The translations under genes were made by a program, and so were the position numbers. Positions 4,497 to 30,227 of a stretch of 64,000 bases of DNA are shown here, in pieces. The notes under the pieces were generated by a model that saw only the letters and a program-made list of their open reading frames with translations, did not search any database and was not told the origin of the DNA. Location of the stretch: positions 1,088,001-1,152,000 of the forward strand of contig CAWGXH010000004.1 of assembly GCA_963826525.1 (NCBI GenBank), read 5' to 3'. The stretch comes from an uncultured Methanomicrobiaceae archaeon. Lineage in GTDB: Archaea; Halobacteriota; Methanomicrobia; Methanomicrobiales; Methanoculleaceae. The number at the start of each line of letters is the position of its first letter. The stretch's first letter is position 1.

Positions 4497-4931
4497 ATGA
4501 GCAGAGCAGATGATGCGGTCTCCCGGTTCCGGGAGGGTTCCAGTTGTGCACAGTCGGTAGCCTCGGTCTTCGCGCCCGATCTCGGGCTCTCCGAGGAGCA
4601 GGCACTCCGGGTCTCCTCGGGGTTCGGGGGCGGGATGGGCCAGACCGGCGGGGTGTGCGGGGTAATCTCGGGAGGAATCATGGCTATCGGCCTCCGCTAC
4701 GGGAGCGGGGTGCCGGGAGATAAAGAGGCCCGGGCGAAGACCTACGCAGTTACCGCGGAGTTCATCGGCCGGTTCCGGGAGCGGCACGGGTCGGTTGCCT
4801 GCCCCGATCTCCTCGGGTGCGATCTCTCCGTGCCGGAGGAGCGTGAACGGGCACGCCGACAGAACCTCACCAGGGACGTCTGCCCGGGGTACATCCGCGA
4901 TGCGGTAGAGATTCTCGAAGAACTTCTGTAA
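4497..4931 (+). CDS. C_GCAxxG_C_C family putative redox protein
   Basis: SCAQSV...GFGGGMG..GVCGVISG...CPDLLG...C motif. Confidence 0.9.
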   Translation: MSRADDAVSRFREGSSCAQSVASVFAPDLGLSEEQALRVSSGFGGGMGQTGGVCGVISGGIMAIGLRYGSGVPGDKEARAKTYAVTAEFIGRFRERHGSVACPDLLGCDLSVPEERERARRQNLTRDVCPGYIRDAVEILEELL

Positions 4932-4938
4932 CCCCTTT

Positions 4939-6120: not shown

Positions 6121-6124
6121 GGTC

Positions 6125-7231
6125 TCATTCCTCCTCCAGGGGCACGGGGAGACTTTGTTCTCCGGCCGGTGCGTGATACAGAGTTTTCGCTCTCATCCGG
6201 GATAAGGGATTCCGGAGCCGGTATCCCCGGACGAGGTCTCCCGGCCGCGTATTCTTCAGTGCCAGCGCTCTGCTCTCGAGGAGGTTCCACGAGAGGACCG
6301 CGAGCGGGAGGGTCAGGAGGAAGGTCAGGACGGCGAGTGCGGCGACCGAGAGGCGATCCCCTGCATACCAGACGAGCGACTGTTGGATGGGGTATGAGTA
6401 GACATACAGGCCGTAGGAGAAGTCCCCGTGCCGCCCGAAGGCGTGCAGCCCGCCCACAGGGAGGTATGCCGCATACAGGACGAGGTAGGGGACGCAGATG
6501 ATGGAGACGATGTCGTGGTAGGGTGTCAGGGCGGAGAGGACGAGGGCGAGGAGGAGCGGTGCGGCGATCCGGATGTCGTAGACGAGCCGCTCGCGGTTCT
6601 GGTAGAAGTATGCGCCGATGAGGAAGTAGAGGGTGAACCTGACCTTGGCGAGGCTCGGGTCGTCGTACCATGCCATCCAGAGGGCGACGTCGAGGGCTAT
6701 CAGCAGGAGGACGACTCCCTTCCTCCGGAGCAGCCCTGCGATGCCGAGAAGCGCGACCACGCCGTACATCCCGACCTCGACGGGGATCGTCCAGAGCGAG
6801 GCATTTACGTAGGTGACGGGGTTACCGGTGAAGATCCCGATGGCCGAACCGTTCTCAAAGAAGGGGAGCGACGCGAGGGTCTGCCAGGAGAAGACGGTGG
6901 CGATGTACTCCGGCAGCGGAAGGGCCGTCACGAGCGGCCCGACGATGAAGAGCGTGAAGAGGACGGCGGCCACGAGCGCGGGAAAGACCCGGAGAGATCG
7001 CTTCCAGAAGAATCGCGCCGGCGACGCCGTCGTCTCCCAGCTGGCGGAGATGAGGTAGCCGCTGACGACGAAGAGCGCCGCAAGTGCCAGATACCCGAGC
7101 AGAAGGAGCAGGTCGTCCGACCGGATACGGGCGTAGCCGAGCGAGAGCGAGTATGCGTGTGCGATGATCACAACCGTCGCTGCAGCAAACCGCAGAACGT
7201 CGAAGTTGTTCTCATGCCTGCCCGGGCTCAT
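6125..7231 (-). CDS. Acyltransferase-3 family membrane O-acyltransferase
   Basis: NNFDVLR..A..VI..H, FFWKRSLRVFP, NASLWTIPVE, GDFSYGLYVY..P. Confidence 0.9.
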   Translation of the reverse strand: MSPGRHENNFDVLRFAAATVVIIAHAYSLSLGYARIRSDDLLLLLGYLALAALFVVSGYLISASWETTASPARFFWKRSLRVFPALVAAVLFTLFIVGPLVTALPLPEYIATVFSWQTLASLPFFENGSAIGIFTGNPVTYVNASLWTIPVEVGMYGVVALLGIAGLLRRKGVVLLLIALDVALWMAWYDDPSLAKVRFTLYFLIGAYFYQNRERLVYDIRIAAPLLLALVLSALTPYHDIVSIICVPYLVLYAAYLPVGGLHAFGRHGDFSYGLYVYSYPIQQSLVWYAGDRLSVAALAVLTFLLTLPLAVLSWNLLESRALALKNTRPGDLVRGYRLRNPLSRMRAKTLYHAPAGEQSLPVPLEEE

Positions 7232-7315
7232 ATACTCACTGGTTTTCCTTCAGTGAATATACATCTCTCTCCTCGCGCCGGGGTGCGGCAGCGGCAACCT
7301 GAAAAATGGTGTGGT

Positions 7316-7744
7316 TCAGTCGGTTGCCGGGAACGACTCCCCTTCTTCCTGCTCCGCGCACGGCAGCGAGAAGTGGGTGAGTGCGCAGAGCCAGCGTTCG
7401 CCCTCGCGCCTGAAGACGGCGGTCATCCTTCCTTCAAGCGCCTCGCTCTTCCCCTCGATCGTCGGGGTGATGGTGCACCGGGCGGCGACCCAGGCGACAT
7501 CCCCCAATCCCGCGACCCGGATATCGTCGAACTCCATCGAGAGCGCCTCGCACTGGATGAAATCCCGCTCGAGCCCGAGCCGGTACTCCTCGAGGTCGGT
7601 GCAGACCTCGTCCGATCCCGACCCGAAGGCGATGAACTCCGGAGCGGTCAGCGCGAGCACTGCGTCAGGGTCGCGGCGGCTGTATGCGGCGCCATATTCT
7701 CTCAGTGCCTCTGTAACTTTCTCGATCGCTTTTTCGTCAAGCAT
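7316..7744 (-). CDS. SnoaL/NTF2-like protein
   Basis: GDVAWV...GRMTAVFRREGERWLCALTHFSLP. Confidence 0.85.
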   Translation of the reverse strand: MLDEKAIEKVTEALREYGAAYSRRDPDAVLALTAPEFIAFGSGSDEVCTDLEEYRLGLERDFIQCEALSMEFDDIRVAGLGDVAWVAARCTITPTIEGKSEALEGRMTAVFRREGERWLCALTHFSLPCAEQEEGESFPATD

Positions 7745-7865
7745 ACGGGCATTCCTCTCCCGGAGAGATGGATCTTTCCGTGCTTAACTGTTTCCAATTG
7801 TTGAGTTTGCCGGGATGACCTCGCCGTGCATAGTTCAAATACGAGGAGGGACAGTAACCAACCGT

Positions 7866-8657
7866 ATGGACCCGCTTGTCGTTGCCACGTTTGCGATTGT
7901 CATCCTCCTTGAGTTTGCCGTCCCCCTGGGGCTCGGGTGGTGGATAGCCCGCAGGTTCGGGGTGTCCTGGACGATCTTCGGGTACGGTGCCCTCTTCTTC
8001 ATCGTCGTGCAGATATTCCACACGCCCCTCGTCCTCGTCACGCAGGGGCCGCTCACCCTCTTCCTGCTCGAGACCCTGCAGGACATGACGCTCGTCGTTG
8101 CCGTCCTTGCCCTCTACCTCGGCCTGCTTGCGGGGCTCTTCGAGGAGATCGGCCGCTACCTCGTCTTCCGGTACTTCTTTCCGCGCCGGGTGATTCCGCT
8201 TGTCCGGGAGAACGGGCTGATGTTCGGTACCGGGTGGGGCGGTATCGAGAGCATGATCGTCGGCGGTCTTGTCTTCACGACGCTGCTCTCCTATATCGCC
8301 CTCACCTCGGGGGACACGACGCTCCTCACTGCCGACCCTGCCGTCCAGCAGCAGGCGGCCGCCCTCCTCGCCCTGACGCCTCTCGATATCCTGCCCGGCC
8401 TCTTCGAGCGTATCATGACCATCATCCTCCATATCGCCTGGACGCTGATGGTGCTGGCGTCGATCGTCCTCGCACGCCCCGCCCTGCTGGTGCTGGCCAT
8501 CCTCTGGCATGCCGCCGTCGATGCTGCCGTGGTCTACCTCGCGCAGACATCGGGAATCCTCATCGCAGAGGCGTCGCTCTTCGTCTTCGCGGTAATTGGG
8601 GTCGCTTACATCTTCTGGGAGTGGAAGCGCCTCGGCAGGCATCAGGCGGCGGCCTGA
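7866..8657 (+). CDS. YhfC/PrsW-like intramembrane glutamic protease
   Basis: AGLFEEIGRY, GWGGIES, ERIMTIILH, WHAAVD; polytopic membrane protein. Confidence 0.85.
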   Translation: MDPLVVATFAIVILLEFAVPLGLGWWIARRFGVSWTIFGYGALFFIVVQIFHTPLVLVTQGPLTLFLLETLQDMTLVVAVLALYLGLLAGLFEEIGRYLVFRYFFPRRVIPLVRENGLMFGTGWGGIESMIVGGLVFTTLLSYIALTSGDTTLLTADPAVQQQAAALLALTPLDILPGLFERIMTIILHIAWTLMVLASIVLARPALLVLAILWHAAVDAAVVYLAQTSGILIAEASLFVFAVIGVAYIFWEWKRLGRHQAAA

Positions 8658-8658
8658 T

Positions 8659-9518
8659 TCACCACCGGTGCTGGTAGCCCCGGCGGTCGAGCGCCCGCCC
8701 GTCGACGAGCACCGACGGCTCTTTGGTGACCCTGCCGATGACCGTGCCCTCCACCCCCGGAACGGGGAGGAGTCCTTCCGGGCAGGTGAAGAGGAGCTCG
8801 AAGTCCCCGCCGCCGTGGAGTGCGAGCTCGCGTGCCTCCCCCTCCGGCACCCCGGCCGGGAGCGGCAGGCGGCGGCTCTCGACGGCGAACCCGCAGCCGT
8901 TCGCCGCCACCATATCGTAGAGCGAGAGGGCGAGGCCGTCGGAGATATCCATCATCGCGGTCACCCCCGCCCTGCCGAGCGCTATCCCTTCGCGGACTCG
9001 CGGCTGCGGTTCGAGGAGCGCCCGCCGGTGCCGCCCGTAGCCTTCGAGCGCCGCCTGCGCCTCGCCGAGGGGCCGGTCACCACGACGACGTCGCCCGGCC
9101 GTGCCCCCTTCCGGCGGACGAGGTGCTCCGGCGCGACGTGCCCGAGACCCGTGCTGACGATCGTGAGTTCCCGGTGGGCGTCGAGGTCGCCGCCGGCGAG
9201 CTCCGCTCCGAAGGTGGTGCAGCAGTCGTGGGCGCCCTCCATGATCGAAATGAGCCGTTCCGGGTCGTCGAGGCCGACGGCGAGGAGGACGGCGGTCGGA
9301 GCCGCACCCATGGCGGCGATATCCGAGAGGGTGACCGCGACCGACATCCAGCCGATCTGCCACCCCGTCATCCCGGCAGGAAAGTCGGTGGTCTCGTGGA
9401 GCATATCCGTGGTCGCGACGAGAAACTCCCCGCCGTGCGGAAGGACGGCGCAGTCGTCGAGCGTCTGTTTGCGGCCGATGATCGCCTGCACCCGGGTCAG
9501 CAGGTCCCGGTCATCCAC
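8659..9518 (-). CDS. thiL: Thiamine-monophosphate kinase (frameshift near 9070)
   Basis: DDCAV..TTDM..TDFP, LSDIAAMGA, GGD in ORF 8982..9647; MMDISDGL, GGGDFELLF, GYQH in ORF 8659..9363. Confidence 0.92.
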
Positions 9519-11466
9519 CGCGGCGCACCTCCTTTTCGCGCTCGCTCCGGTACTCTTTGAAGAGGTATTCGAGCCGTTCCGTCTCCTGTTCCCGGCGGAA
9601 CTGCCTCTGTTCCTCCTCCCAGTCCCGGATGGCCTCCTCGAGCGCATCCGTCTTTACCGCCCCGGTCTTCCCCCGGATATCGGCCCCTACCTTCCGGTCC
9701 GGAACGAGCGGCAGATCCGCCTCGCGGAACGCCGCGACGAGCTGGGGGTCGGGCTCCCCGGCAGTCTCCTTCCCGGCGATCACCGCCTGCACCCCGGCCG
9801 CGGCGAGGTCTTTGACGACCGCCCGTCCCCATCCGGCCGTCCGGCGGGCGTAGAGAATGTCCCCCTCGCCGATACCGATCTCCTCCGCAAGAGCCCTGAT
9901 CGCATCCCGGGTGAGGGCGTCGAGCACCTTGACCGGCGTTCCGTCCTCGGCATGCGCCACTTCCGCGATCGTCCGGAGCCTATCAAGCCTCTTCTTCAGC
10001 CTCCTGCCGTGCCGTTTCTCGTTCCGGAGCTGCTGCTTGAGACTCTCGATGATAGCATCCTTCGTCGCGAGTTCGGCGTCTTTCCGGAGTTTCTTCTCGG
10101 TGGCCGAACGCTCCCGGCGGATGCCCTTTCTGAGACGGTCGATCTCCGCATCCCGGTTTTTGAGGTCTTCCTGAAGATCGGCCACATAGCCGCGGAGCCT
10201 TTTGACCATCCCGTCGAGGGTGATCACCCGCTCGTCTTCGACCTTCCGCTCGACGACCGCCGCCGGTGCCGCTTCTTCGGCCGGCGCCGGGACTCCCTGC
10301 AGGTCGGCGAGCACCTGGTCGAGCGCCTGGCCCCGGAGGACGCGGGCGCGCACCTCGTCGAGATCGACGCCCGGCGGCACCCGTTTTGCGAGGTTCTGGA
10401 ACTTGTTCTTGTTGCTCCGGTAGGCGTCGAGCGCCGCCGAGAGGGCGTCGCGTTCGTGGTCGTTCGTATAGGAGAACGGCGCCGTCAGGTCGTACTTGGT
10501 CTCGACGGCGAGCGACTGCCGCGGCGTATAGGGGATGGCGTTGAAGGCGCGGCGGATCTTCTCGACCGAGTAGGGCATCTGCTGGACGTCCGAGGCGACG
10601 ATCAGCGGTTTACCTGCCCTATAGAGCTCCTCGACGATATCGGACATCGTCATCTGGCGGGAGCTCGTGAGGTGGATCAGGTTCCCGTCGAGGTCGACGG
10701 CGGCGATCCCGGTCGTGGTGCCGGGGTCGAGGCCGACGATAAGGTAACGGGGGCGGCCGCTGCGCTGTTCGTAGCGTATCCGGTCGAGCCGTCGCCCCGC
10801 CACCCTGACCTGCACGTCGGCGCCGCGGTAGGTATGCACCGGCACCATGTCGCGGGGAGCGTGGACGGCGAAAGCGACCCGGGAGAACCCGCCGAAGGCT
10901 TTCGTCTCCTTCTTCTCGTAGCGGAGGCCGGCGCCTTTGAGCTGCTGCTCGAATCTCGCGGGATTCTGCATGACTCCGCCGTGGATCTTCCGGGCGTAGC
11001 GGTTCTGGCTCCAGCCTCCCCTGCCCGGCGAACGGTGGCGGCTCACCACGATATCGGTGGTGTTCTCAAAGGCAATCACCTCGACACCGGCGCCGAGTCC
11101 CGCGACCTGGGCGATGGTGCGGGCTTCGGCGTACGGGTCGAGTTTATTGAAACTGATATTGTATCGGGATGCGACTTTCGGGAGGGACTCTTTCTTCTCG
11201 CCCCCGGTCACCTGCACGAGGCGGGTCCTCGGCGGGAGCGACTGGAGAAACTCGAAGAGTTCGTGCTGATCGGTTGCGATCTCCTGGATGCTGTCGACGG
11301 CAAGAATATCGGGCTCCTCCGCGGCGAGCAGGCGGCGCAGGCGAAAGAGCGTCACCTCCGTTACATCGGTGATCTCGCCGTCTTCCATCCGGTAGAGGGC
11401 GTACAGCGGCCGCTGCGACCGCGAGCGCACCGATCCTTTGATAACGTCGATCCCGAAGATCCTCAA
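9511..11466 (-). CDS. DUF460 protein (RNase H-like domain plus coiled coil)
   Basis: RIFGIDVIKGS start (TTG overlapping the rio2 stop), GRGGWSQNRYARKIH, IVGLDPGTTTGIA, NDHERDALSAA. Confidence 0.85.
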   Translation of the reverse strand: MRIFGIDVIKGSVRSRSQRPLYALYRMEDGEITDVTEVTLFRLRRLLAAEEPDILAVDSIQEIATDQHELFEFLQSLPPRTRLVQVTGGEKKESLPKVASRYNISFNKLDPYAEARTIAQVAGLGAGVEVIAFENTTDIVVSRHRSPGRGGWSQNRYARKIHGGVMQNPARFEQQLKGAGLRYEKKETKAFGGFSRVAFAVHAPRDMVPVHTYRGADVQVRVAGRRLDRIRYEQRSGRPRYLIVGLDPGTTTGIAAVDLDGNLIHLTSSRQMTMSDIVEELYRAGKPLIVASDVQQMPYSVEKIRRAFNAIPYTPRQSLAVETKYDLTAPFSYTNDHERDALSAALDAYRSNKNKFQNLAKRVPPGVDLDEVRARVLRGQALDQVLADLQGVPAPAEEAAPAAVVERKVEDERVITLDGMVKRLRGYVADLQEDLKNRDAEIDRLRKGIRRERSATEKKLRKDAELATKDAIIESLKQQLRNEKRHGRRLKKRLDRLRTIAEVAHAEDGTPVKVLDALTRDAIRALAEEIGIGEGDILYARRTAGWGRAVVKDLAAAGVQAVIAGKETAGEPDPQLVAAFREADLPLVPDRKVGADIRGKTGAVKTDALEEAIRDWEEEQRQFRREQETERLEYLFKEYRSEREKEVRRGG

Positions 11467-18369: not shown

Positions 18370-19161
18370 ATGAGCGAGTCTAGGGACATTCCTGCGGATA
18401 TTATCGAATCTCTGAAGTCACTGGGGCTTACCAAGTACGAGGCTCTCGTCTATATCGGGCTCCTCAAGGTTGCCGGGGCTACGGCGACCGAGATTCACGA
18501 GATCTCGGGCGTACCCCGCGCATCGGTCTATCCCGTCCTCGACCGGCTGATGCAGAAGAGTCTCGTCAGTGTCTCGCATGCCACGCCCCGGCGTTTTAAT
18601 GCCACCCCGCCTGAGGAGGGGGTAACGATGCTCATGCACCGGATCGAGGAGGATGCGAAGGCCGCCCGCGAGGCGCTCGTCGCGATCTACGCATCGAAGC
18701 ACGAGGAGGAGCGGGGCGATCAGGAGCTGATCTGGAGTATTTACGGGCAGGAGAATATTCTCGGCCGGCTCGGCGAAGCCTTCCGGAACGCAGAACGGAG
18801 CGTGTATATGGTCGTCAACGGAAGCCTCCTGTCGGGCTCGATCCTCCCGCTCCTCAAGCCTGTTTTGGGCTCTGTTGCCGTCGAGGTCGTCACCGAGTGC
18901 TGGGAGGGCGAGATGCCGGAGGGGATGACGGTGCACGTCCACCATCACTGTATGAAGTCAGAGAACTGCGGGCATGCGGAGAAGAGGCTGCCGATGGAGA
19001 ACGCGGGGGTCTTTATCGTCGACGGCGAGAAGGTGCTCGTCTGGATGAGTTCGGTCGGCGAAGCGCCCTCCGCCCTCTACTCGGAATCCGCCGGGTTCGT
19101 GCAGTTCTTCAACCGGTACTGGACCAATATCCGGGACTGGGTGGATAGCACCAGTCAGTAG
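18370..19161 (+). CDS. TrmB family transcriptional regulator
   Basis: LKSLGLTKYEALVYIGLL...ISGVPRASVYPVLDRL; C-terminal IVDGEKV. Confidence 0.9.
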   Translation: MSESRDIPADIIESLKSLGLTKYEALVYIGLLKVAGATATEIHEISGVPRASVYPVLDRLMQKSLVSVSHATPRRFNATPPEEGVTMLMHRIEEDAKAAREALVAIYASKHEEERGDQELIWSIYGQENILGRLGEAFRNAERSVYMVVNGSLLSGSILPLLKPVLGSVAVEVVTECWEGEMPEGMTVHVHHHCMKSENCGHAEKRLPMENAGVFIVDGEKVLVWMSSVGEAPSALYSESAGFVQFFNRYWTNIRDWVDSTSQ

Positions 19162-19907
19162 TCGGCGAGATACCCCATCTCTTCGATACCGATCAGCCCT
19201 TTGAGCGCACGGGTGACGACCCAGCGCCCCGTCTCTTTTATCGCCGCCATGGCGTTGGTGCCGCCCACCATCGTGATGCCCAGGTACTCCGGACTGACCG
19301 GGACGCCGAGAAGCGGGACGTTCGGAGCGCCGACGTCGAGGATGCCGGAGAACCCGGTGGCGGTGAGTTCGTCGAGGACGGTCCCGACGAGGGGTTCGGC
19401 CTCCATGTGGCACTCCCGCATGTTCGCGAGGATGTTCCCGCTGCCGTGCTCCATGACGCCCAGGATGGAGGTGATGTCCTGGGAGATGAGCACCTCGAGC
19501 GGGTCGAGGGTCGTGTCCTTGTAGAGGAGCATGCTGATGAACCGGCGCGCCTCGTGCCGGTCGACCTCGACGACGCCGCCGCCGATGGGGTTGAGCGGCA
19601 CGCCGCGCTGGAGGAGCAGGGCGTCGAGGGTGATGCTGCACATGGTGCAGACGGCGTGGGCGTGATCGGGAATGGTGTAGTCCCCAATCTCTTCGCCGGG
19701 CTCTGCGATCCTGATCCGGTCGCTGACCATGAGGCCGGTCCTGTGGGCGTCTTTGAGCATCGCGAGCGCAAAGGAGAGGTCTTCCTCTTTGATGAGCGAG
19801 AGGTTGTAGATGATCTTCCCGGTGTTCTCTTCGGGGTTGTACGTCACCTGCAGGGCGTACTCCTCGATGCGGTGGTTGGTGAATTTCAGCGGTTCTTTCA
19901 TCGGCAC
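19155..19907 (-). CDS. NrpR-domain (DUF128) regulator lacking the HTH, NrpRII-like
   Basis: TMCSITLDALL..GVP..P.GGG, TTLDPLEVL, VGGTNAMAA. Confidence 0.85.
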   Translation of the reverse strand: MPMKEPLKFTNHRIEEYALQVTYNPEENTGKIIYNLSLIKEEDLSFALAMLKDAHRTGLMVSDRIRIAEPGEEIGDYTIPDHAHAVCTMCSITLDALLLQRGVPLNPIGGGVVEVDRHEARRFISMLLYKDTTLDPLEVLISQDITSILGVMEHGSGNILANMRECHMEAEPLVGTVLDELTATGFSGILDVGAPNVPLLGVPVSPEYLGITMVGGTNAMAAIKETGRWVVTRALKGLIGIEEMGYLADY

Positions 19908-19983
19908 GGCTCCTTCATCGCGCGGGGGCGGGGTTGAATTTCAGCGGTTCTTTCATCGGCACGGCTCCTTCATCGCGCGGGGG
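19880..19983. repeat. Direct repeat of 49 bp, period 55 bp, covering the start of the NrpR-like gene
   Basis: TGAATTTCAGCGGTTCTTTCATCGGCACGGCTCCTTCATCGCGCGGGGG at 19880-19928 and 19935-19983. Confidence 0.92.
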
Positions 19984-20372
19984 GAGGGGTCTTCCGGCGG
20001 GGAGGGTTGATACTTTACTTGTCGTTTCGGAGGGAAAAAGGGTCATTGTTCGGAGGTGGGTGGTGTTCGGGTGCGGGGATGGTTGGGGTGGTAAGGTGGC
20101 CTGCAGGGGTTTTGTTTCCTGTGTGCTGGCGATGCCCCCAGTTGGGTGAGGGGGAACCGCTCCTTTCCATCCTTAAATGAGGCAAATCTGTGAGTATTTT
20201 CCGGTTTTACTGCTGGCTTTAGAAAGTGAATTTCGGCGGTAAGGGGAAAGGGTTTGCGAAATGGAATTCTTGCATCACTGTATTAAAGCAAGGAAAAGCA
20301 TCCTCTAATTCCAAAAAGCAAAACCGATTGTTTAAGTTAAATCAGATAGGTACAACCTGATTGGCGACATCG

Positions 20373-22901
20373 ATGGATAATGATAATGAGACCTTTTTTG
20401 AGGTTGATTCAAAGCTTCTCTTTGAATTAGGGGAGTATCTTATACCCAATCGGGCAATTGCTCTGGCGGAGACTGTTAAGAATGCATACGATGCTGATGC
20501 TAGTAAGGTCACCATCACATTACAGAGCATAAAGAAACCTGGGGGAGTAATCGAAATACAGGATAATGGTGTTGGCATTAGTGAGTCGCTTTTTAAGTCA
20601 TCTTGGATGCGCATTGCATCTCTCCATTCTGAACGGAATCCGCTATCTGAAATGTATCTGAGAAGAAAGGCAGGGAAGAAGGGCATTGGCAGATTTGCAT
20701 GCCGAAAGATTGCAAAAAGGCTATACTTGGGACTCAGTTGCTGAAATTGAACCTGGATATAAAGAAAAACTCTCGGCAATTTTTGATTGGTCAAATTTCA
20801 TTCCAGGTTCGAGTGTCAGTCAGGTACCAGTCAGATATCGTATCACTACGGAGGACAGTAAGACGCCTACGGAACGAAACTGAGATTGGAAGAGACTACT
20901 GAATCTTGGAACAGCAAAAACATTTTACGATTGCGAAACGAACTGAATGAACTCTATACTCCAATTATATACAAAACCGAAGAATCCCGGAATGATTCCG
21001 CAAATCGAAGCGATCCTGGATTTAATTATGTGATTTGTAGTGACGAATTTTCGATTGAACCCGATACAATAAATAATTCCTTTTTTAAACTTGCATGGGC
21101 GAAATTAACAGGATCTGTCGATAAGAATGGCTATGCAACCTATAAACTCGCCGTTCAAAATAAAATCGTAAATTCCTTTGAAAAGTCTTTCAGTCGAGAG
21201 GTGGCCTTTGAAGATCTAATCTGTGCAGAACTAGAGATATACATTTTTTCTTATCGTGCAGATTTATTTTATAATTCTGACTGGAAGTATGCCTCAGATA
21301 ATGGAGATTGCGAAAGATCGGGGAGGTATTCGAGTATATGCTGATAATTTTAGAGTCTTTGGTTATGGGGAAGCAGGAAATGACTGGCTATGCCTGAATC
21401 ATGATAGAGCGAGATCAAAGGCGGATGTTGCCCAAGAACTATTTGTATATAAAGCAGAGGCAACTAGGCCTGGTTTGGCTCTTTTTACCAATGGCAGCTC
21501 TGTTTGGATACGTTACATATTTGCAAGATGAAAATCCCCTTTTGGAAATATTGATTAATCGCGATCGGTTTGATCCTCGTTCTCAGTCATTTAAAAATCT
21601 TTAGAAAATTTGTGAGATTAGGTATAGACTTTGCAACGATCTTATACGCAAATGAAATTGAAATTGAAAAAGAGAAAAAGAGGGCGCTGAACGAGGAAAA
21701 GATTAAAAAAGAAAATGAATCTAGGAGAAAGGCCGAAGATGAGGCACGGGTTGCTGAAGAAGGGGCACGGATTGCCGAAGAGGAGCTGAAAGAAGCAGAA
21801 AAAGCAGAAAGAGAAGCAACCGCTGCTCGAATCAATCCTGAGAAGAAGCGACGCCAACTCGAAGCAGAAAGGCGACTAATTGAGATTTTTAGGAGGAAAG
21901 CAGATGCTGAAAATCATCTGCGGGGGCAAAGCAAAACTTTGCGTAAGGTTGAGGAGGAACAGAAAAAAGAAGAAGAACTGATTAGAGCAGAAAATGAGGC
22001 AAGACAGACTGGAAGAGCGGAAGTGGGCAGAAGAGTTAACGGTCAAAAAATTATCTGAAGAAAAAAGAACGCAAGCAATTAATAAATTATTCTCTTCACT
22101 TCAAGAGATTAAGAGCAATGAAGAACAGATAATAAGTTTAAAGCAAGCAGAACTGGATAGGCAGGCAGAGCAATACCGTGAAGAATTCTCCAGATTAAGA
22201 GTGTTAGCCTCAACAGGCACAATGATAAATGTATTCATTCATGAAATTCAGGCATTAATTGGCGATATGCAAATGATGCAGAGCCACTTCACTGCTCTCT
22301 CTGGATACGCTCCCGCCGATGAAAGAGAATTTTACGAAAAAGATTTAGTGATTTTCGATGATCGAATTGACATGATCAACCAGTTCGGACTGTTTAGGCC
22401 TTACATTAGGTCAAGAAAGCAAGCGCCTGAAATGAAAATGTGGGTCATAAAGCCTGTTGTCGAGCAGGTAGTTTCACCATTTAAATGGCAATTAAGGGAT
22501 AGGGGCATTGAGTGGACAAACTCGATTCCTGAGACATTAAGGACGCCACATATGTTCCATTCAGAACTGGTGTCCATTTTCCAAAACCTACTATCTAATT
22601 CGATAAAAGCAGTTTCAGGGACTCCTGATCGGCGGATTGCAATAGTCGGGGCAGATACAGGAGATAACCTCGTGATCAAATTCCTGGATTCTGGAAAGGG
22701 TATAGATAAAGAGCGATGGAAGGAAGTGTTTAAGCCATTTGTGGAGTCGACTCAGAGCCAGATGCTTTTCAGGGTTCGGGAACTGGTTTGGGCTTGAAAT
22801 TAGTCCGGGATTTTGTTCAGGCGTATGAGGGGAGGGTGCGAGTTATTGATCCTCCGGAGAATTGGAAAACTTGTATTGAGATCTCCTTACCTCTGGTGTA
22901 A
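20373..22901 (+). CDS. MORC/MutL-type GHKL ATPase - coiled coil - histidine kinase fusion (several frameshifts)
   Basis: ALAETVKNAYDADA, DNGVG, GKKGIGRFA; GGIRVYADNFRVFGYG..NDWL; E/K/R/A-rich coil; LASTG...FIHEIQ H-box; QNLLSNSIKA, FLDSGKGI, VFKPF, GTGLGL; ends CIEISLPLV*. Confidence 0.82.
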
Positions 22902-22903
22902 AC

Positions 22904-24028
22904 ATGCATTTGAAAGTTTTGTACCATTGACGATGATAAACGTGATCTGGAGCGATGTTCACGAATTATTGAAATGAGGGGATCAAAAGATTGTCAGTTT
23001 GAGTTTGACCTCCGCGTATCCTCTTCTCTTGCCGGACAATGGGATTGTTTTGCGGATGAGACGTATGATCTGATAATTGCAGATTTTGACTTCTCAAAAG
23101 TTGATGAAGATAACAAAGTATTAGGCATGAACGGTATTGCCTTGTCAAATCTGTTAAGGCAACACTTATTCTGAATGTCCGATTGTTCTTATGACCCGGC
23201 CAGATGTCTTTGATTTCGACACCTACCGGAACTCGGGTATTCAGGATGCAGAACTGCATCCTTAGATGAACCATCTATAAAAATGATTTATTACCATCTG
23301 CCGGTAAGACTGTAAGTCTGCTGGTCGAGCTTAGTTCAAGGGTATGAAACGCTACGGTCGTGTGAACCTAGGAACTGGGATGCTTTGTATGATGTTTTGG
23401 GTGCTCCCGATAGTTCTCACGATGATTTGAAATTATCCTATCCCACAGACCAGTTAATGAAAGGGGCTACATGGGCCGTCTTCACCACTGCAAAATGGAT
23501 TAGGAACGTTCTGATGAAGTATCCTGGCATCCTCTATGATGAAATTCATGCGGCCACGTTCCTTGGGATTCAGTTGATTCATTCCAGGGGGGTCATGTTC
23601 AGGAATTCTTGAGGCCAGCAAGATATTCAGGAGTCTTTTCACAGGAAAAGATGCTTTGGTGGAAATCTAGACTTACTGACCTGGCAACAGCTGATATGAT
23701 TGAAGATGAGGCGTTTTTGTCTTTGCGAAAAGGCTTCCCCATGTATTGGAACAGAACGAGAAACGCGAGCTTAAGCCCTGCCCTCTGTAATTCAAGTAGT
23801 AATACTCCCGCGGACTATGTTTGCTGCATTTGTAACGAGCCCGTGATGATTAAATACTCAATGCGGTATTATCCCGACAATCGACCTTCTGTAATGGATG
23901 AGGCACGAGTCTCATTTAAAGCCATACAAACATCAAATGATGTTAGATTTTCGCTCTTCGATTCATTGGGGCTGGAAATAATCAAGGAGAAATGTCTGAA
24001 TAGAAGGTTGTTTGAAAGGGAGCAATGA
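22904..24028 (+). CDS. Response-regulator receiver protein with uncharacterised Cys-containing C-terminal domain (several frameshifts)
   Basis: MHLKVLY-IDDDKRD, YDLIIADFDF, NGIALSNLLR, CPIVLMT; later YPGILYDEIHAATFLG, LWWKSRL, ALC...YVCCICNEP. Confidence 0.75.
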
Positions 24029-24036
24029 CCACACTA

Positions 24037-24777
24037 TGACTCAAATCGCGGATTACAATGATGGGTTACAGTATTTGTTCGCTTACGAAGAGAGCCGAAA
24101 ATATATAGATGACGAGTCATTAATTAACCTGCCTTGGTGCTGTGCAAATAAGGATCGGAATACAGGCACAATGACCTGGAAAATGAAAATTTCTGAAGAA
24201 AATCCATTTAAAGTTAAAATTAAGGGGCATCAGGCCATTACAGAAATCGAGATCTCCCTTTACATCGAGGCAGAAGAGGCCGAATATCTGAAAATACGTC
24301 GGTTCAATGTTCAACTTAAACTCTGGTCGGACAAGGTTGATCATTGGTATCGCCCAGAGTTTGATTCTACACAGATTCCTCAGAAAGTGACAGACCGCGG
24401 ACTGCAAAAAAGAGTGATGTTAAGATTTCATTATGATATCAGAAAGAAGAAAGTGTTCTCACCAGAACCATATTTTCATTTCCATGTGGGTGGAAGGCAA
24501 TCTCTAGATGAAAACTGTTGGATTCCTAGGGCTATAAAAGAGCCTAGAATTCCATCCCCTCCTCTGGACATTGTTTTACTACTGGAGTATATCTTTGTCA
24601 ATTACTATAGCAAAGAGACCGAACAACTACGAAGTACACCTAAGTAGGTTAGGATGCGTACGCCGGAGCCAAGACTTGTTCCAGAAACGGTACTTCCTGA
24701 AGTGTATGCAGTTCCTTGAAGATACTGAAAATACGCTGCTCGAGAACTCACTACATTATAAGTTAAAGCGCAATTAG
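24037..24777 (+). CDS. Hypothetical protein, DUF2290-like C-terminal motifs (frameshift near 24640)
   Basis: LRFHYD...PEPYFHFHVGG...EPRIPSPPLDIVLLLEYIFVNYY; closely follows the REC gene. Confidence 0.55.
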
Positions 24778-26343
24778 TCACGAGTTACGAGTAATTAGAG
24801 TTCTGTATAAATATTTACCAAAGAGACTAATTTTTTGATCAAGCACATCGCCATACCACGTACCATTTTGTATTGCAAAATCTCCAATCTGCTCGATCAA
24901 ATCAAGATTTGGCAGTGGCAACTTTCTAATGTCCGTGACATTCACCTGCGTATTCCCACTTATCATTCGATAATATCTGTCAATTACTGATGAGTTAAGC
25001 AATGCAGTAATTCCGAGGATTATATTAGTCTCAATGTCACCCTCGATTCCATAAATATAGTTCAGGTGGTTTTCAAACCCAAGGTGAGTGTATTCTGAAA
25101 AGTTTTCTTTAAATAAGGGTGATGCAGTGATCCTTTTACTCTGACACTTTGATGAAAACCTTTTGATGAGTATATAGTCGTTGTTTGGGACTAAAAGTGA
25201 TTCAGTCCTAATAATTTTAAGAATTGCCTGTCGTTTTCTATAGTTTTCGATAGGCCAGCTCACTCCGGTCAGACCGCAGTGTTTCATCCATAATAACGGC
25301 ACCCATTCTTTTGATGATGAGTTATCGACTAAATACTCTGCCACTCTAAAATCCACTACTTTTCCTGTAGAAACACCCATTCCAAAATCTTTTAGATCGT
25401 TTTCCCACGAATCTACAACTTCAAGAATATTGAGATCATCTGGTGAATTTGGGATTCTTATGTAGGAATGTGCGTTTTGCGTCACTATAACGTCTTTAGG
25501 TTGCGCGTACAATGTCTTGATATCAGAGAATCGGCTATCTAACGAGCTGGTCACTAGAATCTTGCCTTGGCTATTATTTTTAGTTCCATTAAAAATTATT
25601 ACTTCTTGTTCTACCTTATCGTCACTAAACACCTTTGTGCGTGACTTAAAGATATGGATTGCTTTTAGGGATGAGTTATGAATGAACCACTCCCTGACTT
25701 TTTTATAATACAAACCTGAGCAAAAACTTCTGGGAGTGATAAAAACAAATTCTCCGCCGTTCTTTAGCATGCTCGCTGATAATACCATGAATAGTGAGTA
25801 AATGTTAGGCTGTCCCTCAACGAAGGTCTCCAATAGACGAGAATACCTAGATGTTGCTTTAAGTTTGTAATAGGGTGGATTTGCTATTACTATGCTATAA
25901 CGGTCATGTTCTTCAAGAGGCCATAATGCATCCGACTGTACGTAATGTGAATTGTTGAGAATAAAGTCCATGTTTCTAACAGTGATAGTAGCATCATGCC
26001 CTAATTGTATAAGTTTTGTCTCAAAATCGTGAGTGGTACTTTTCAAGTATGGGGTAAGTTTTTCATCAATTTCCCAGGCGTCGATGGTGATGCTGATCGG
26101 GTCTTGAATTTCATTGGCAATTCTATTGCAGAGAGCGGCAAGTAATACTCCTGTGCCCGCTCCAGGGTCTAATATCTTTAATTGCTCTTTATTGATGTCG
26201 ACCAAACTGGCCATGTGCGTTGCAATGCTAACAGGTGTGAAAAACTGGCCACAACGTTTGCGGTTGACGTTACTGTTTGTATTTGTATATTCACTTGCAT
26301 AGTGGTAGGAGTTATCAAGGATCTTCTGCGCTGTTTGCTCCAT
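24778..26343 (-). CDS. Type II N6-adenine DNA methyltransferase, Eco57I-domain, BsuBI/PstI-like
   Basis: GQFFTP, ILDPGAGTG, IANPPYYK, PNIYSLF, ITPRSFCSGLYY, STGKVVDFR, FENHLNY, SGNTQVN. Confidence 0.92.
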   Translation of the reverse strand: MEQTAQKILDNSYHYASEYTNTNSNVNRKRCGQFFTPVSIATHMASLVDINKEQLKILDPGAGTGVLLAALCNRIANEIQDPISITIDAWEIDEKLTPYLKSTTHDFETKLIQLGHDATITVRNMDFILNNSHYVQSDALWPLEEHDRYSIVIANPPYYKLKATSRYSRLLETFVEGQPNIYSLFMVLSASMLKNGGEFVFITPRSFCSGLYYKKVREWFIHNSSLKAIHIFKSRTKVFSDDKVEQEVIIFNGTKNNSQGKILVTSSLDSRFSDIKTLYAQPKDVIVTQNAHSYIRIPNSPDDLNILEVVDSWENDLKDFGMGVSTGKVVDFRVAEYLVDNSSSKEWVPLLWMKHCGLTGVSWPIENYRKRQAILKIIRTESLLVPNNDYILIKRFSSKCQSKRITASPLFKENFSEYTHLGFENHLNYIYGIEGDIETNIILGITALLNSSVIDRYYRMISGNTQVNVTDIRKLPLPNLDLIEQIGDFAIQNGTWYGDVLDQKISLFGKYLYRTLITRNS

Positions 26344-26648
26344 AAAATACCACTATCTCTTCCTAGTGTCGCTCAAAATTCAGTATAACTTATTAATCTG
26401 CCATTTCCGCAGATTTGATCATCTTAAATATGGGCAACGGTATCACTTAAAGATTTGCTTCTGATTTTTGGAAAATCTTCTCTTATTTGACAGCTCCTTG
26501 AACTTTAGTGTGATCGGTTTCTCTGAATACTAAACTCCTATGACCCACGATTGAAGCATTGGATAGTCACCTGCAGGTACCCATCTGTCCCAATGGAGGA
26601 TTGCGGCGGGGAGGAGAAATGGGTTTGATGCTCCACAAGGGATGATAT

Positions 26649-27237
26649 CTACTTTTTTGAAGATTTTCCTGATATTTCCTTCAACGTGCCCTTAATTTCA
26701 GAAAGTTCTTCAAATATCTCATTAAACTCCTTCTGTGAATCACTTATATGGAGTGAGGCGTAAAACATCGCCGTGCTCAGGCCGATTGATACGAAATACG
26801 CATCCAATTGTGAAAACTGGTGAGTCGACGTAACTGCGGAGGCCTATTTGGTCTATAGCTAGCATCTCTAATATTTTTGATGATAACGGTTTTACTAAAA
26901 GGCATCCGCCAATAATTGCTAGAATTGTACTAATGACGCAGAATACTAAAATTAGCCTTTGAGCCTTCTTTTGACTTTTAAGTCTTTTCGTAGTTTTCAG
27001 TGTATCTGGACTACCTTTTGAGGACTCAACCAATTTCGGTGTAATTTTGCTGTAAATTATTATAAGAAAGAGGCCTGTTGCAATCATGAGCAAGACGCTA
27101 AAAATCAACTGAAAGCCGAGAATGTTGTCTTTGGTCATTTCAAAAGCAATTATTTCAGATAGCGCAACAGCGAGGAAATAAACCACTGCAAGAATTGCGA
27201 TTTCCCCAATCTCCGAGGCGCCCTCGTCCCGTCCCAT
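26649..27237 (-). CDS. Hypothetical membrane protein (probably frameshifted; C-terminus ...KEFNEIFEELSEIKGTLKEISGKSSKK*)
   Basis: Three to four hydrophobic segments in ORF 26740..27237; plausible continuation in another frame to the stop at 26649. Confidence 0.5.
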
Positions 27238-27313
27238 TGAATAGAGTTCTTCTTCAAATGCTGAAAACCCTTTCCAAGCGTTTTTTGAAACCTGGAATAG
27301 ATTTACCTAAATA

Positions 27314-27461
27314 ATGCCTCCCCCTCCTACAGCAGCCTCCCCTACCTCTTCGCCGGCTGTGCCCTGGTCGGGCTGCTCGTCATCTCCTCGGCGCATACGT
27401 GCTCAGCCCCGGGGAGGCGAACCCGCCCCTCTCCTTCGCCCCTCCGGCGAGATACGTCGGG
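27314..27461 (+). repeat. Left copy of ~150-bp diverged direct repeat (signal-peptide gene fragment)
   Basis: Aligns with 30051-30197; shared core CCCTGGTCGGGCTGCTCGTCATCTC. Confidence 0.85.
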
Positions 27462-27523
27462 AACGTTTTCCCTCTCATCGTGGAAAACTGACTGTAAAAT
27501 GCATATCGCCCTGATACCCGCCC

Positions 27524-28634
27524 TCACCCCCGTTCCCTCCGTGCTTCCAGCGCCTCGATCTCTTCGAGCGTCCTCGCCTCACCCACCCGGTCGCCGACCT
27601 CCCGTGCGACCGCGAGGCTTTCATGGTAGCAGTCCAGCGCCTCGCCGTACCGGTCCGTCTCCGCATACACCTTCCCGATGCTGCGGAGGAGAGCCGCTTC
27701 GGCAGGTCGATCTCCCAGATCCCGGTAGATCCGGCGGCTTCGCGTGTACGACGCCAGCGCGGCATCGTAGTCTTCCAGGCGGAGAGTACGCGTCCCCCAG
27801 GGAACAGAGTGCGCCCGCTTCCCCCTGCCGGTCGCCGGCCTGCGAATACTTCTCAAGACTCTGTGCTATCAGCTCGAGCGCCCTGGCGTACCGGAAGGTC
27901 GATAAGTAATATTTTCCTTTTTCGAGCAGCATCTTGGCTTCGCCGCTCGTATCCTTGATCTTTTCGGCGAGCTCGACCTGATCTCGTATCTGCGATGTGA
28001 AAGAATCGATGACTTTCACGATGAGGTCATAATGTGTCCCCTTCAGACGATGGGATACCGCAGATTGAGTTTTGCCGATCTTTTCTGCGATCTCCTTTTG
28101 CGTGAGCCCTTCCAACGTCAGCATCACGGTTTCTGCTTGTCTCTTTGTATATCCATTGATAGTGTTATCCACGGCAGCGCAAAAAATCGGCAAAAAAGCA
28201 TTCGACTTCTTCCCAGGGCGTTTTTACAGTCAGGTTTTGCCCGGCCTTTTTCATCTGATCCAGTTCGAGACCCGAAAGGCTGAAACGCCTCTCCGTCGCC
28301 CTCGCCGGCCGAACCGTCTTTCGGCAGGTAATTGACGGTTCCGATCCCAACCGCAATTCTTGCATCCAGCCGGGTTTTGGTATTATCGGGATCAAGCCCG
28401 GAGATGAGCTTGAGGCGTAAGAGGATGGCATCCTTCAATGCAGTCTTCAGGCTTTGAAGAAACTCCCTGAAAACTGTCCCCACGGAATATCGAAAACGGC
28501 ACGGCGTACTCTTTTCCGATCTCTGCCAACGTATTCTTCAAGTGGCGGATACATTCTTCACCGCATGCTTTTTTGATCTCTCTGGATTGGATTACATCGC
28601 CGGTGAGAACAGCATACATTTTTCTTCCCGTCAT
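27524..28634 (-). CDS. SatD-family palm domain - HTH - TPR fusion (about four frameshifts)
   Basis: YAVLTGDVIQSRE, FRGDSFQG, DARIAVGIG, GDGEAF..SG..LD; LTQKEIAEKIGKTQSAVSHRL; TPRs GDRQGEAGALCSLGDAY, GDRPAEAALLRSIGKVY, GDRVGEARTL. Confidence 0.78.
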
Positions 28635-28676
28635 GACATCATTGCCTTCTTCAAAGGTTCCTTTCTTGCGATAAGA

Positions 28677-28839
28677 TATGAATGTATTTATTCATGTTTT
28701 GAGAATATTAATATTATAGTTCATAGTATGGAAGTATGAGTAATTTTAATCATAAGAATGGGATATGAATAAATTTGTTCATATCTGTAATATATGTGTG
28801 TCTTAGTTCATATTTTTAGATTATGAGGGAATATTCATA
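28677..28839. promoter_or_regulatory. Array of six palindromes TATGA-N10-TCATA with exact 29-bp period
   Basis: Copies start at 28677, 28706, 28735, 28764, 28793, 28822; best copy GATATGAATAAATTTGTTCATATC; array begins 43 bp upstream of the SatD-HTH start. Confidence 0.85.
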
Positions 28840-28975
28840 CCTTTCAGATGAGGTTCTGTAGCGGCTCGTTCTTGCGGTAAAGATGGATACGGTTTCGTAT
28901 TATTTAGAGGCTGCGGATAGCATGCTCAAATTCAGCGATCTTCCGGTTAACAGATCGAAATCTGGATAGACCCCT

Positions 28976-29941
28976 CTAGAGCATTTGAAAGAATTCTGAT
29001 AGATATTGTATTATTTTCTCAATCCCCCCCAGATTGATTAGGTAATTGGATGTCGCTCCTATAAAAACGGCAATCGCGAAGCTTAACAGTGTTCCTAAAA
29101 TGATATATTCCGATCTCTTCGAATCGTTAATTCTGAAAAGTCCTTTTGCTGCTACAAGGAATCCAATTGCTGTGTAGTCGTTTACGAGGATAAAAATCAA
29201 TATCAGAATACGCTCTACATATCCGATCAAGCGGCCGGCGTTGTCTAAGCTGCCTTCTTGCGTAGTGTCCACATCTTTTCGCCAGAGCTGAGTGATTCTA
29301 TTGACGAGTATCCCGCTAGGCCAGAGAATCAGAAGGAATGCAATAATCGCAATCCATATTTTGATTATCTCAACTGGACTTCCAAAGGGATATGGGATTG
29401 GGATGTGTGGATAGAGCAGTACCAAAACGATGAGTAGAACAAACCCGTGGGCGATCTGGTCGATGAAAAATATATGGATGGGTTCATCTTCAATTTCTAC
29501 TTCATGCTCTCCCTGCTCTTCCTTATCCTCCTGATCTTTCTCATCGTCGTGATCGCCCTTACAATTTACTTTCTTTCGGAGGTTTGCCATCCAGTGGGAC
29601 TTCAACCCGTCTATGACGAAGTGCGATGCCGTGACGAGGATAAATGCGTATAGGAAGGTAATCCATAATTGCGGAAGGAACTCCGGAAGAGATGATGGAT
29701 GTTTTAAGATCAGTATGAAGTTCCAAAGGTTGGCAAAAAGAAACGTCAATACCCCGGCTACAATGGCATGACATATCAGGCACTTGGAGTGCCAACCATT
29801 ATTGAACCGGTTTTTAACCCAGGCATCTGGCTGGAAAACAAAATCGGTCAAGATATGGGCGAGAATTAGGCGAAGGAACAACTCGATGCCATAAGGTATT
29901 AACGTTTCAGTCAAGCAATTGTTATTCTGAACTCCCACCAC
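28976..29941 (-). CDS. DUF3307 family membrane protein (SatE-like)
   Basis: LAHILTDFVFQP, SHFVID, IDQIAH, NAGRLIGYVER, GFLVAAK...RSEYIILGTLLSF. Confidence 0.88.
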   Translation of the reverse strand: MVGVQNNNCLTETLIPYGIELFLRLILAHILTDFVFQPDAWVKNRFNNGWHSKCLICHAIVAGVLTFLFANLWNFILILKHPSSLPEFLPQLWITFLYAFILVTASHFVIDGLKSHWMANLRKKVNCKGDHDDEKDQEDKEEQGEHEVEIEDEPIHIFFIDQIAHGFVLLIVLVLLYPHIPIPYPFGSPVEIIKIWIAIIAFLLILWPSGILVNRITQLWRKDVDTTQEGSLDNAGRLIGYVERILILIFILVNDYTAIGFLVAAKGLFRINDSKRSEYIILGTLLSFAIAVFIGATSNYLINLGGIEKIIQYLSEFFQML

Positions 29942-30050
29942 ATTATTTATTCTATTCTTTCTAGGGAGGCTCCGCCCCGTTTGAGCGATAACCTCAATGG
30001 CAATCTGCTTTGAGAGAATCTATCAGTTCTGAGGAAAAAACCGTATTGTC

Positions 30051-30227
30051 ATGTCCCCCCTCTCCCGTAGCAGTCTCCCGCACCTGATCGCCGGCTGCAC
30101 CCTGGTCGGGCTGCTCGTCATCTCTTCGGTGTATGCCAGGAGCCCCGGAGAGGTGAGCCTGAACGTATCCTTCGACCCGCCCGGGGGATACATCGGGGAG
30201 GGCAGCCCGAAAATCCCGAACAAATAA
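30051..30227 (+). repeat. Right copy of direct repeat; reads as a 58-aa ORF with signal peptide (MSPLSRSSLPHLIAGCTLVGLLVISSVYA...)
   Basis: Manual translation; homologous to 27314-27461. Confidence 0.75.

Follow-up and report, generated by a model that had tools for sequence, protein, structure and literature searches.

What is the function of three tightly packed genes that run towards a DNA methyltransferase gene in an uncultured Methanomicrobiaceae archaeon? The locus that raises this question lies at positions 20373-26343 of a 64,000-nucleotide (nt) stretch of the genome (assembly GCA_963826525.1, contig CAWGXH010000004.1, positions 1,088,001 to 1,152,000 of the forward strand; hereafter, the window). 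It consists of g1, g2 and g3, which are co-directional on the + strand, and of an intact N6-adenine methyltransferase gene on the - strand, on which they converge. The original prediction described this locus as a candidate two-component defence system, made up of an ATPase-histidine kinase, a receiver protein and a DUF2290-like protein, that faces an orphan methyltransferase; the motifs that it quoted, the close packing of the three genes and the converging methyltransferase were all recovered in place. Based on the analyses reported here, we lean towards the view that the locus is a copy of a mobile, self-contained four-gene module resembling a restriction-modification (R-M) system, in which the 'restriction' arm is wired as a His-Asp phosphorelay. 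The four genes are:

20373-22901, + strand: g1, MutL/paraMORC-like GHKL ATPase (HATPase_c_3), coiled coil of ~200 residues, HisKA-type DHp and HATPase_c; seven frame switches
22904-24028, + strand: g2, receiver domain and mostly helical C-terminal domain of ~210 residues; six frame switches
24036-24777, + strand: g3, ~245 amino acids (aa), possibly distantly DUF2290-like; one frame switch
24778-26343, - strand: methylase, single open frame of 521 aa; Eco57I / N6_Mtase

The methylase gene ends where g3 ends, with no gap between the two convergent genes.

Recurrence of the four-gene arrangement

In a search of 185,579 species genomes (one genome per species), 370 of 454 candidate stretches encoded a g1 relative, and the best 80 were kept. 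Judged by record title, 17 of these best 80 loci are archaeal; the archaeal hosts are Methanoregulaceae, Methanoperedens, Methanotrichaceae, Methanolobus, Halorubrum, Haloferax, Halorientalis, Salinadaptatus, Bathyarchaeota, Hadesarchaea and Parvarchaeota. Using tblastn with the proteins of locus L001, from a Methanoregula metagenome-assembled genome (MAG), g2 was found beside g1 in 60 of the 80 loci, and an open reading frame (ORF) rule placed a g1-g2 pair in 65 of the 80, among which there is one false pair and one that was set right by hand; the remaining loci are mostly truncated contigs. A g3-sized ORF stands next to the g1-g2 pair in 53 loci (52 by rule and one by hand). Within 5 kb of these 53 trios, an ORF of at least 350 aa with the motif [ND]PP[YFW] is present in 50, and in 42 it lies within 700 nt; two of the three loci that lack a methylase-like ORF stop at contig ends. 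In the 50 loci, the methylase lies upstream in 10 and downstream in the others, in 20 of these on the same strand and in 20 on the opposite one. NPP[YF] occurs in 38 of the 40 adjacent ORFs of 518-695 aa, 39 of which were picked by rule while that of L017 was added by hand.

Thus, the survey bears out the co-occurrence of the trio with methyltransferases. Because a methylase-like ORF accompanies the trio in 50 of 53 loci, the methylase is not an orphan, as had been proposed, but a near-constant fourth member of the module. No conserved fifth gene was found among the 133 of 163 flanking ORFs from 48 loci that were scanned; the commonest flanking Pfam families are Phage_integrase (four) and IstB, YgjP-like, ResIII and three AAA-type ATPase families (three each), and families seen twice include XhoI and TniQ. 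All four genes are intact in L001, in which the methylase is likewise convergent and is followed by a type I HsdR-like gene. They are also intact in L100, a complete single-contig genome of the same order, at ~4000-10000 of the stretch 836001-850000; there, the module occupies an island of ~27% guanine-plus-cytosine (GC) in a region of ~40% GC and looks foreign too. Because g1 relatives are intact and the gene order recurs, the pattern is not a product of chance, and g1-g2-g3 is supported as a real conserved unit with two-component features.

Copies of the module also travel on plasmids, and g1 relatives occur on 284 plasmid records. On the Hymenobacter plasmid NZ_CP014303.1 (L097), the four-gene module adjoins genes for a large DNA methyltransferase and for an Argonaute-like protein with a Piwi domain, a defence-island-like setting, and a Halomicrobium plasmid copy adjoins MazF and YgjP-like genes. 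R-M-like neighbourhoods, which the original prediction had expected, are therefore what the module occupies: islands and plasmids, with HsdR-like, Piwi and MazF genes among its neighbours.

We also observed a kinase-receiver set on the Campylobacter jejuni plasmid CP132133.1 (L099; 6974-11439), where a GHKL-kinase, a receiver and a convergent dcm (C5) gene are present and g3 is not. This arrangement is a shorter form of the module, carried on conjugative plasmids; g1 was matched by 43 Campylobacter plasmid records.

In the window, the module lies in an island of deviating composition:

20000-30050, no strand: low-GC island defined by the GC profile, containing the module together with another set of foreign genes

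In the profile, GC drops from ~0.6-0.7 to 0.38-0.44 between ~20000 and ~30000. The low GC that the four genes had been noted to share is real, at 0.409 for g1, 0.427 for g2, 0.404 for g3 and 0.386 for the methylase against 0.635 and 0.617 in the flanks, and the genome as a whole has ~63% GC versus ~40% across the four module genes. None of the 24 genomes of the same family that were searched yielded the locus DNA, and only weak patches of 65-74% appeared, in two genomes that belong to the same order but to another family. We conclude that the low-GC island is foreign and horizontally acquired.

The methylase and the ATPase-histidine kinase

The methylase matches Pfam Eco57I (5.8e-18) and N6_Mtase (1.8e-16) and, over its full length, the PADLOC model MTase_II PDLC03227 (1e-122); it carries DPGAGTG and NPPY and is 45% identical to the L001 methylase over residues 10-492 in one frame. 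The facing gene had been read as an N6-adenine methyltransferase, and these matches and motifs agree with that reading. In its full-length PDLC03227 match, DPGxGxG and NPPY, the protein resembles type II gamma-class N6-adenine methyltransferases (Eco57I / N6_Mtase), whereas it differs from stand-alone enzymes of this type in having the conserved partners g1-g3 and no recognisable cognate endonuclease; Pfam, NCBIfam and PADLOC recognised no known nuclease family in g1-g3.

Pfam assigns HATPase_c_3 (2.7e-17) to the first fragment of g1 in the window, which contains ETVKNAYDADA, DNGVG and GKKGIGRF, and HATPase_c (1.3e-8) to the piece at 21982-22794; a Lys/Glu-rich coiled-coil stretch separates the two ATPase domains. 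FIHEIQ (H-box), NLLSNS, LDSGKG and GSGTGLG are all kept, and six colinear tblastn pieces of 45-66% identity align g1 to its 852-aa Methanoregula homologue. The first ~110 residues match GHKL-type restriction enzymes (NCBIfam BbrUII/HgiDII family, 2.9e-16, far under the family cut-off), and PADLOC REase_II (2e-10) and MutL were also matched by the N-terminus. The relatives of g1 are full-length proteins of 818-876 aa, plus one of 729 aa. Both GHKL Pfam domains are present in 18 of 19 database matches, and L001 g1 and 10 of 10 diverse relatives have both HATPase_c_3 and HATPase_c.

Across 18 relatives, E33, N37, D40, D64, G66, G68 and G101-G106, which form the Bergerat-fold motifs, are invariant, as are H630, E631, N745, N749, D779/G781/G783 and G807/G809/G811/G813, which form the H, N, G1 and G2 boxes. 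Residues 620-823 of a profile of these relatives align to the DHp and CA core of HK853 (24-229; 3.9e-12), and the profile also aligns to the N-terminus of MutL (5.5e-4). Between these regions, residues ~130-430 have conserved Arg, Gly and Asp and no Pfam match. Judged by its sequence, g1 is a MutL/paraMORC-type GHKL ATPase joined through a coiled coil to a complete HisKA-type kinase core. That the kinase is complete had been claimed before, and the invariant H-box His-Glu and N, G1 and G2 boxes argue for it.

The receiver protein g2 and the candidate effector g3

In the window, g2 keeps the acidic pocket (IDDD), the acceptor Asp (IIADFD) and the Thr (IVLMTR) of a receiver. An AlphaFold model of the L001 g2 orthologue has a predicted local distance difference test (pLDDT) score of 95.5, and structural comparison confirmed the receiver fold. 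Among 65 g2 sequences, a set that includes one false pick (L011, a histone-deacetylase-family protein), D9 is present in 61, D10 in 64, D60 in 64 and T/S97 in 59; the Lys column holds Lys in 26 and Arg in 7, probably because of alignment noise. Therefore, the receiver domain assigned to g2 in the original prediction holds up, with the acidic pocket and the acceptor Asp kept in 61-64 of 65 sequences; Pfam (E<=0.01) assigned PF00072 to 10 of them. The C-terminal ~210 residues are mostly helical, and the residues conserved there are mainly aromatic or structural. For residues 152-364, there was no usable ESM Atlas match, and a sequence profile matched only receivers in the PDB; the structural match lists were taken up by receivers.

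The window g3 carries HFHVGG...PRIPSPPLD and is 43% identical to L001 g3 by tblastn, with its C-terminal piece in another frame. The family has the conserved pattern His-x-Asp...His-x-Gln-Gly-Gly...Pro-Arg; among 53 sequences, H130 is kept in 49, D/E132 in 51, H146 in 53, Q/H148 in 53 and R169 in 51. This His/Asp/His/Gln/Arg cluster is, as far as conservation can indicate, the sole candidate catalytic site in the module. The g3 model has a pLDDT of 94.2, and no relative of it was found among solved structures. At E<=1e-3, the family comprises 1252 cluster representatives (50% identity), and 975 at <=1e-10; a g3 profile retrieved 26 proteins from a database of 5.8 billion, all of them devoid of Pfam domains and of informative names.

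The description of g3 as DUF2290-like has two leads behind it, a PADLOC DUF2290 match of L001 g3 (E 0.0023) and an ESM Atlas neighbour at 0.90 (rank 11; 190 of 256 features common). Against it, Pfam DUF2290 (PF10053) matches none of the 53 g3 sequences at E<=0.01; a PF10053 search of the window's genome at E<=1 also gave no match, but neither did the control genomes. We consider the likeness weakly supported. The PADLOC check that had been suggested thus gave, for the L001 orthologues, a weak DUF2290 match for g3 and no model for g2; the window fragments of g2 and g3 had no match in PADLOC, NCBIfam or Pfam.

A predicted g2-g3 complex

When g2 and g3 were modelled as a complex, three runs gave ipSAE values of 0.65, 0.68 and 0.65, while the best of three controls reached 0.00. 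In a calibration, 58 of 80 solved complexes and 2 of 110 mismatched pairs reached this ipSAE mark, counts that hold only roughly here because our own unpaired alignments were used. At least 97% of contacts are common to the runs, with a partner pLDDT of 81 or more. In the predicted interface, residue 270 and the stretch 301-359 of g2 (301, 312-318, 326 and 350-359) meet residues 6-18 (the N-terminal helix) and 194-205 of g3. In P0089, a single record of 608 aa, the g2 profile covers residues 1-361 (hhalign E 3.4e-64) and the g3 profile residues 372-601 (1.1e-46); the protein thus appears to be a natural g2-g3 fusion. Taken together, the model and the fusion suggest that g2 and g3 probably bind each other via the last subdomain of g2.

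Comparison with known systems

The closest published system is that of Bellieny-Rabelo, Pretorius and Moleleki (2021; PMC8011034), who described, in silico and in bacteria only, soluble kinases with HATPase_c_3, HEF_HK and HATPase_c domains. The main text reports 91.6% linkage of these kinases to adjoining Response_reg_2 proteins (644 regions) and an enrichment close to R-M genes, mostly those for C5 methylases and Vsr; a link to paraMORC was also proposed. Supplementary tables aside, that text names no third conserved gene and does not mention DUF2290, and 'archaea' occurs in one reference title. As there, g1 has the plan of a soluble kinase with an N-terminal HATPase_c_3, a His-acidic dyad in the DHp domain and a C-terminal HATPase_c; moreover, it adjoins a receiver-fold protein without a known output domain and is linked to a methylase. 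Accordingly, the claim of full novelty in the original prediction does not stand, because a GHKL, DHp and HATPase_c kinase with an adjoining receiver near R-M genes had, on the main text of PMC8011034, been published in 2021.

Is the locus then a plain member of the HEF_HK / Response_reg_2 system, in which only the host is new? The common architecture, the solubility, the adjoining receiver of ~340-370 aa and the R-M linkage, as the main text gives them, argue for membership. The Pfam evidence is divided: PF19191 (HEF_HK) has no match to L001 g1 at E<=1, and PF19192 (Response_reg_2) matches none of the 65 g2 sequences at E<=0.01, yet two of 10 diverse g1 relatives, both distant, have PF19191 matches at the DHp position, albeit under the gathering score (18.1 and 16.1 vs 24.1 bits). 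Because the Campylobacter kinase/receiver/dcm set, which fits the description in the main text, is also missed by both PF19191 and PF19192, these models are narrower than the family and the Pfam test is a narrow one. Other differences do not depend on Pfam: the methylase is an N6-adenine (NPPY) enzyme here versus mostly C5 methylases with Vsr there, and here there are a third conserved gene and many archaeal hosts, whereas the main text reports bacteria and, its tables aside, no third gene. We therefore think it likely that the present clade and the HEF_HK / Response_reg_2 group have a common origin, and we see plain membership as a serious possibility but doubt it on balance. What is new relative to PMC8011034 is the N6-adenine methylase, the third gene g3 and the archaeal hosts, while the pairing of kinase and receiver by R-M genes was already published. 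Beyond that related pair, and with its supplementary tables aside, we found no description of the four-gene arrangement in the literature searched.

A second point of comparison is Detocs (DtcA/DtcB/DtcC; Rousset et al. 2023 preprint, 10.1101/2023.01.24.525353), in which a His-Asp relay runs an anti-phage system and mutation of the His or the Asp abolishes defence. As in our module, a three-gene operon contains a histidine kinase and a receiver-containing partner, which in Detocs are the defence itself. However, the Detocs sensor described there has tetratricopeptide repeats (TPRs) rather than a GHKL ATPase, the effector (a PNP ATP nucleosidase) is fused to the receiver, the third gene is a buffer receiver and a methylase is not part of the described system. 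The PADLOC matches of L001 g1-g3 at E<=1 list no Detocs family, a result that is bounded by the library, whose Detocs content was unchecked.

The GHKL head of g1 has parallels elsewhere. MORC and paraMORC ATPases were placed in R-M systems by Iyer, Abhiman and Aravind (2008; PMC2292703), in whose accessible text the word 'receiver' does not occur. The N-terminal MutL-like GHKL head is common to g1, these ATPases and GHKL-nuclease fusions such as the BbrUII/HgiDII family and VcSduA (PMC12137116), and MORC/paraMORC systems as described there also have the methylase linkage and the sporadic, mobile distribution in both domains of life. Unlike in those descriptions, the head is here joined to a histidine-kinase core and not to a nuclease, TIR or helicase. 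Finally, a helicase and DUF2290 system is reported by Rousset et al. (2022; PMC9122126) to be active against T7. The likeness to our module lies in the PADLOC and ESM Atlas leads for g3; it differs in that the module contains no helicase (ResIII is present in 3 of 133 flanking ORFs), that PF10053 is not matched by g3 and that g3 is paired with a receiver protein.

Frame switches and the state of the copy in the window

None of g1, g2 and g3 is a single open frame in the window, while the methylase is whole. We mapped the frame switches by tblastn alignment of the intact Methanoregula (L001) homologues onto the window:

g1, + strand: seven frame switches, near 20730, 20868, 21282, 21494, 21598, 21975 and 22745 (homologue alignment)
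g2, + strand: six frame switches, near 22925, 23168, 23255, 23275, 23325 and 23575 (homologue alignment)
g3, + strand: one frame switch, near 24640, which leaves the last ~40 residues in another frame

One g2 switch falls seven codons past the ATG. In total, 14 single-base frame switches occur in 4396 nt, or 3.2 per kb. When the frames are followed through g1-g3, there is no in-frame stop and no large deletion, and every catalytic motif is retained.

As a control, 79 ORFs (>=250 aa) taken from eight stretches of 20 kb in a 99%-complete genome of the same genus were searched against the window's genome, which is rated 87.6% complete and consists of 16 contigs. Of 70 native orthologues (>=60% identity), 34 contain one or more frame switches; the native rate is 52 switches in 90,060 nt (0.58 per kb, with a regional range of 0.15-1.26 per kb), and +1 switches account for 44 of the 52. 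Because the assembly is indel-ridden genome-wide, a single frameshift is not evidence of a dead gene, and because about half of the native genes are frameshifted, many of the 14 switches in the locus are probably consensus errors.

The density of the switches nevertheless counts against a working module at this locus and points to the alternative that the copy is a genuine relic, in which g1-g3 were inactivated by real indels and the methylase was kept under selection as a solitary methylase, which, on this account, is the usual fate of decaying R-M systems. At 3.2 per kb, the locus is ~5x denser in switches than the genome (P 5e-7) and denser than any of the eight native regions (at most 1.26 per kb, P 0.002), and the methylase has 0 switches in 1566 nt, for which the local rate gives P(0) 0.007. 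In the other low-GC stretches of the island that were compared (methylase, DUF3307 gene and SatD-like pieces), there is 1 switch in ~3.2 kb (frames read by eye, uncounted); because these neighbouring low-GC genes are not similarly hit, low GC alone does not explain the density, and the copy here may be dead. On the other side, indels are everywhere in this assembly, and all 14 lesions are single-base. Purely neutral decay would be expected to leave nonsense codons as well, and there are none. The ratio of +1 to -1 switches in the locus (9:5) is not significantly different from the native ratio (44:8; Fisher P 0.13). In addition, a segment carried by only part of the population would be covered by fewer reads and would give the same frameshift picture. 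Weighing these points, we place the relic with a solitary methylase only slightly short of an even chance and regard consensus errors and real inactivation of the restriction arm as roughly equally probable; before a broken-looking gene of this genome is taken for a pseudogene, the reads should be consulted.

A working hypothesis for the module and a regulatory alternative

In our working hypothesis for the intact R-M-like module, the N6-adenine methyltransferase, whose type is assigned from its sequence, would mark the host genome as self. g1 would be a soluble dimeric sensor in which the GHKL head engages DNA and may report DNA that is unmodified or invading. This signal would pass along the coiled coil to the DHp/CA core, which is predicted to autophosphorylate the H-box His, and the phosphate would then move to the conserved Asp of the g2 receiver, as the conserved residues suggest. 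g2 would hold g3 by its C-terminal subdomain, as in the complex model and the natural fusion, and phosphorylation would release or activate g3 to attack the invader's DNA or to arrest the cell. We are more tentative about the general form of this hypothesis, namely an R-M-like immunity in bacteria and archaea in which the self/non-self signal of a MORC-like clamp is passed by a His-Asp relay to a receiver-bound effector whose fold has yet to appear among solved structures; this is conceivable, but we would not expect it to hold in full.

Several observations weigh against the reading as a defence module, in addition to the state of the copy in the window. Library scans recognised a nuclease or another known effector domain in none of the four genes. 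g3 has no relative in Pfam, NCBIfam or among solved structures, and its only PADLOC v2 match is the weak one to DUF2290; PADLOC v2 has no model for g2, and NCBIfam 20.0 likewise. The complex score is a measure of model confidence, obtained from our own unpaired alignments, and P0089, from a metagenomic contig, could have arisen through faulty gene calling. The C-terminal domain of g2 contains a conserved AATxLG helix (A214, T215, L217 and G218) that is possibly part of a helix-turn-helix (HTH); because of this helix and the aromatic and structural conservation around it, g2 could be an ordinary transcription factor.

The last point is central to the alternative that the module is a regulatory two-component system and not a defence system, in which g1 would sense the state of the DNA or of the cell and phosphorylated g2 would be a transcription factor with g3 as a co-factor, an epigenetic switch for the methylase or for further genes. 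Response regulators are mostly transcription factors, and the HTH-like helix, the lack of catalytic-looking conserved residues in the g2 output domain and the lack of a recognisable nuclease in the module all suit such a role. A regulatory system fits poorly, however, with the strict linkage to a methylase that may lie on either strand, with the sporadic cross-domain distribution on islands and plasmids and with a type of GHKL head shared with restriction enzymes and paraMORCs. The weak likeness of g3 to DUF2290, part of a system tested against T7 (PMC9122126), also argues against it. We consider the regulatory alternative unlikely and retain the R-M-like module as our preferred reading. With regard to the two-component defence system as it was first proposed, the conserved two-component trio and its R-M-like contexts remain, while the methylase is a member of the module and the pairing of kinase and receiver was already known.

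Borders and other genes of the island

At the exact left edge of the island, there is a 54-nt tandem duplication (19880-19988; 96% identical, spacing 55) that spans the start-codon region of an NrpR-family gene (19155-19907, - strand) and may have arisen as an insertion scar or by duplication of the target. A GC-rich direct repeat of 80 nt (81% identity) is present at 27317-27396, within the island, and at 30055-30134, at its right border. The two copies bracket a segment with SatD, DUF3307 and HTH-TPR genes and divide it from the segment that bears the four-gene cassette, which suggests that two elements entered one site in tandem. In the bracketed segment, a frameshifted SatD-like gene (28124-29941 region, - strand; Pfam SatD 4.8e-4 on an 80-aa piece, with the rest in another frame at 28124-28483) adjoins a gene for an intact 321-aa DUF3307 protein; the two families appear to travel together in the island. 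A protein with HTH and TPR (27524-28193, - strand; GC 0.558) is split over the overlapping frames 27621-28193 and 27524-27856.

Elsewhere in the window, the sole tRNA genes are two copies of tRNA-Ala(CGC) at 2763-2834 and 3023-3093, 190 nt apart. A promoter and terminator scan was at chance level (19 vs 16.0±3.7 expected), archaeal promoters being outside its models, and the likeness between the small membrane protein encoded past the methylase in the window and the one in the Methanoregula locus L001 was not significant (E 0.078).

Implications

PADLOC v2 and NCBIfam 20.0 hold no model for g2 or g3, and RefSeq labels the plasmid copies 'sensor histidine kinase / response regulator / hypothetical protein / N-6 DNA methylase'. 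If the proposed mechanism is true, the module would represent a mechanistically new class of methylation-dependent defence. If it restricts foreign DNA, it would join self-marking by methylation with two-component signalling as an immune core, the latter as in Detocs, and prokaryotic MORC-like ATPases would gain a defined signalling output. It would also offer a possible function for the g3 family, whose 1252 representatives are unannotated.

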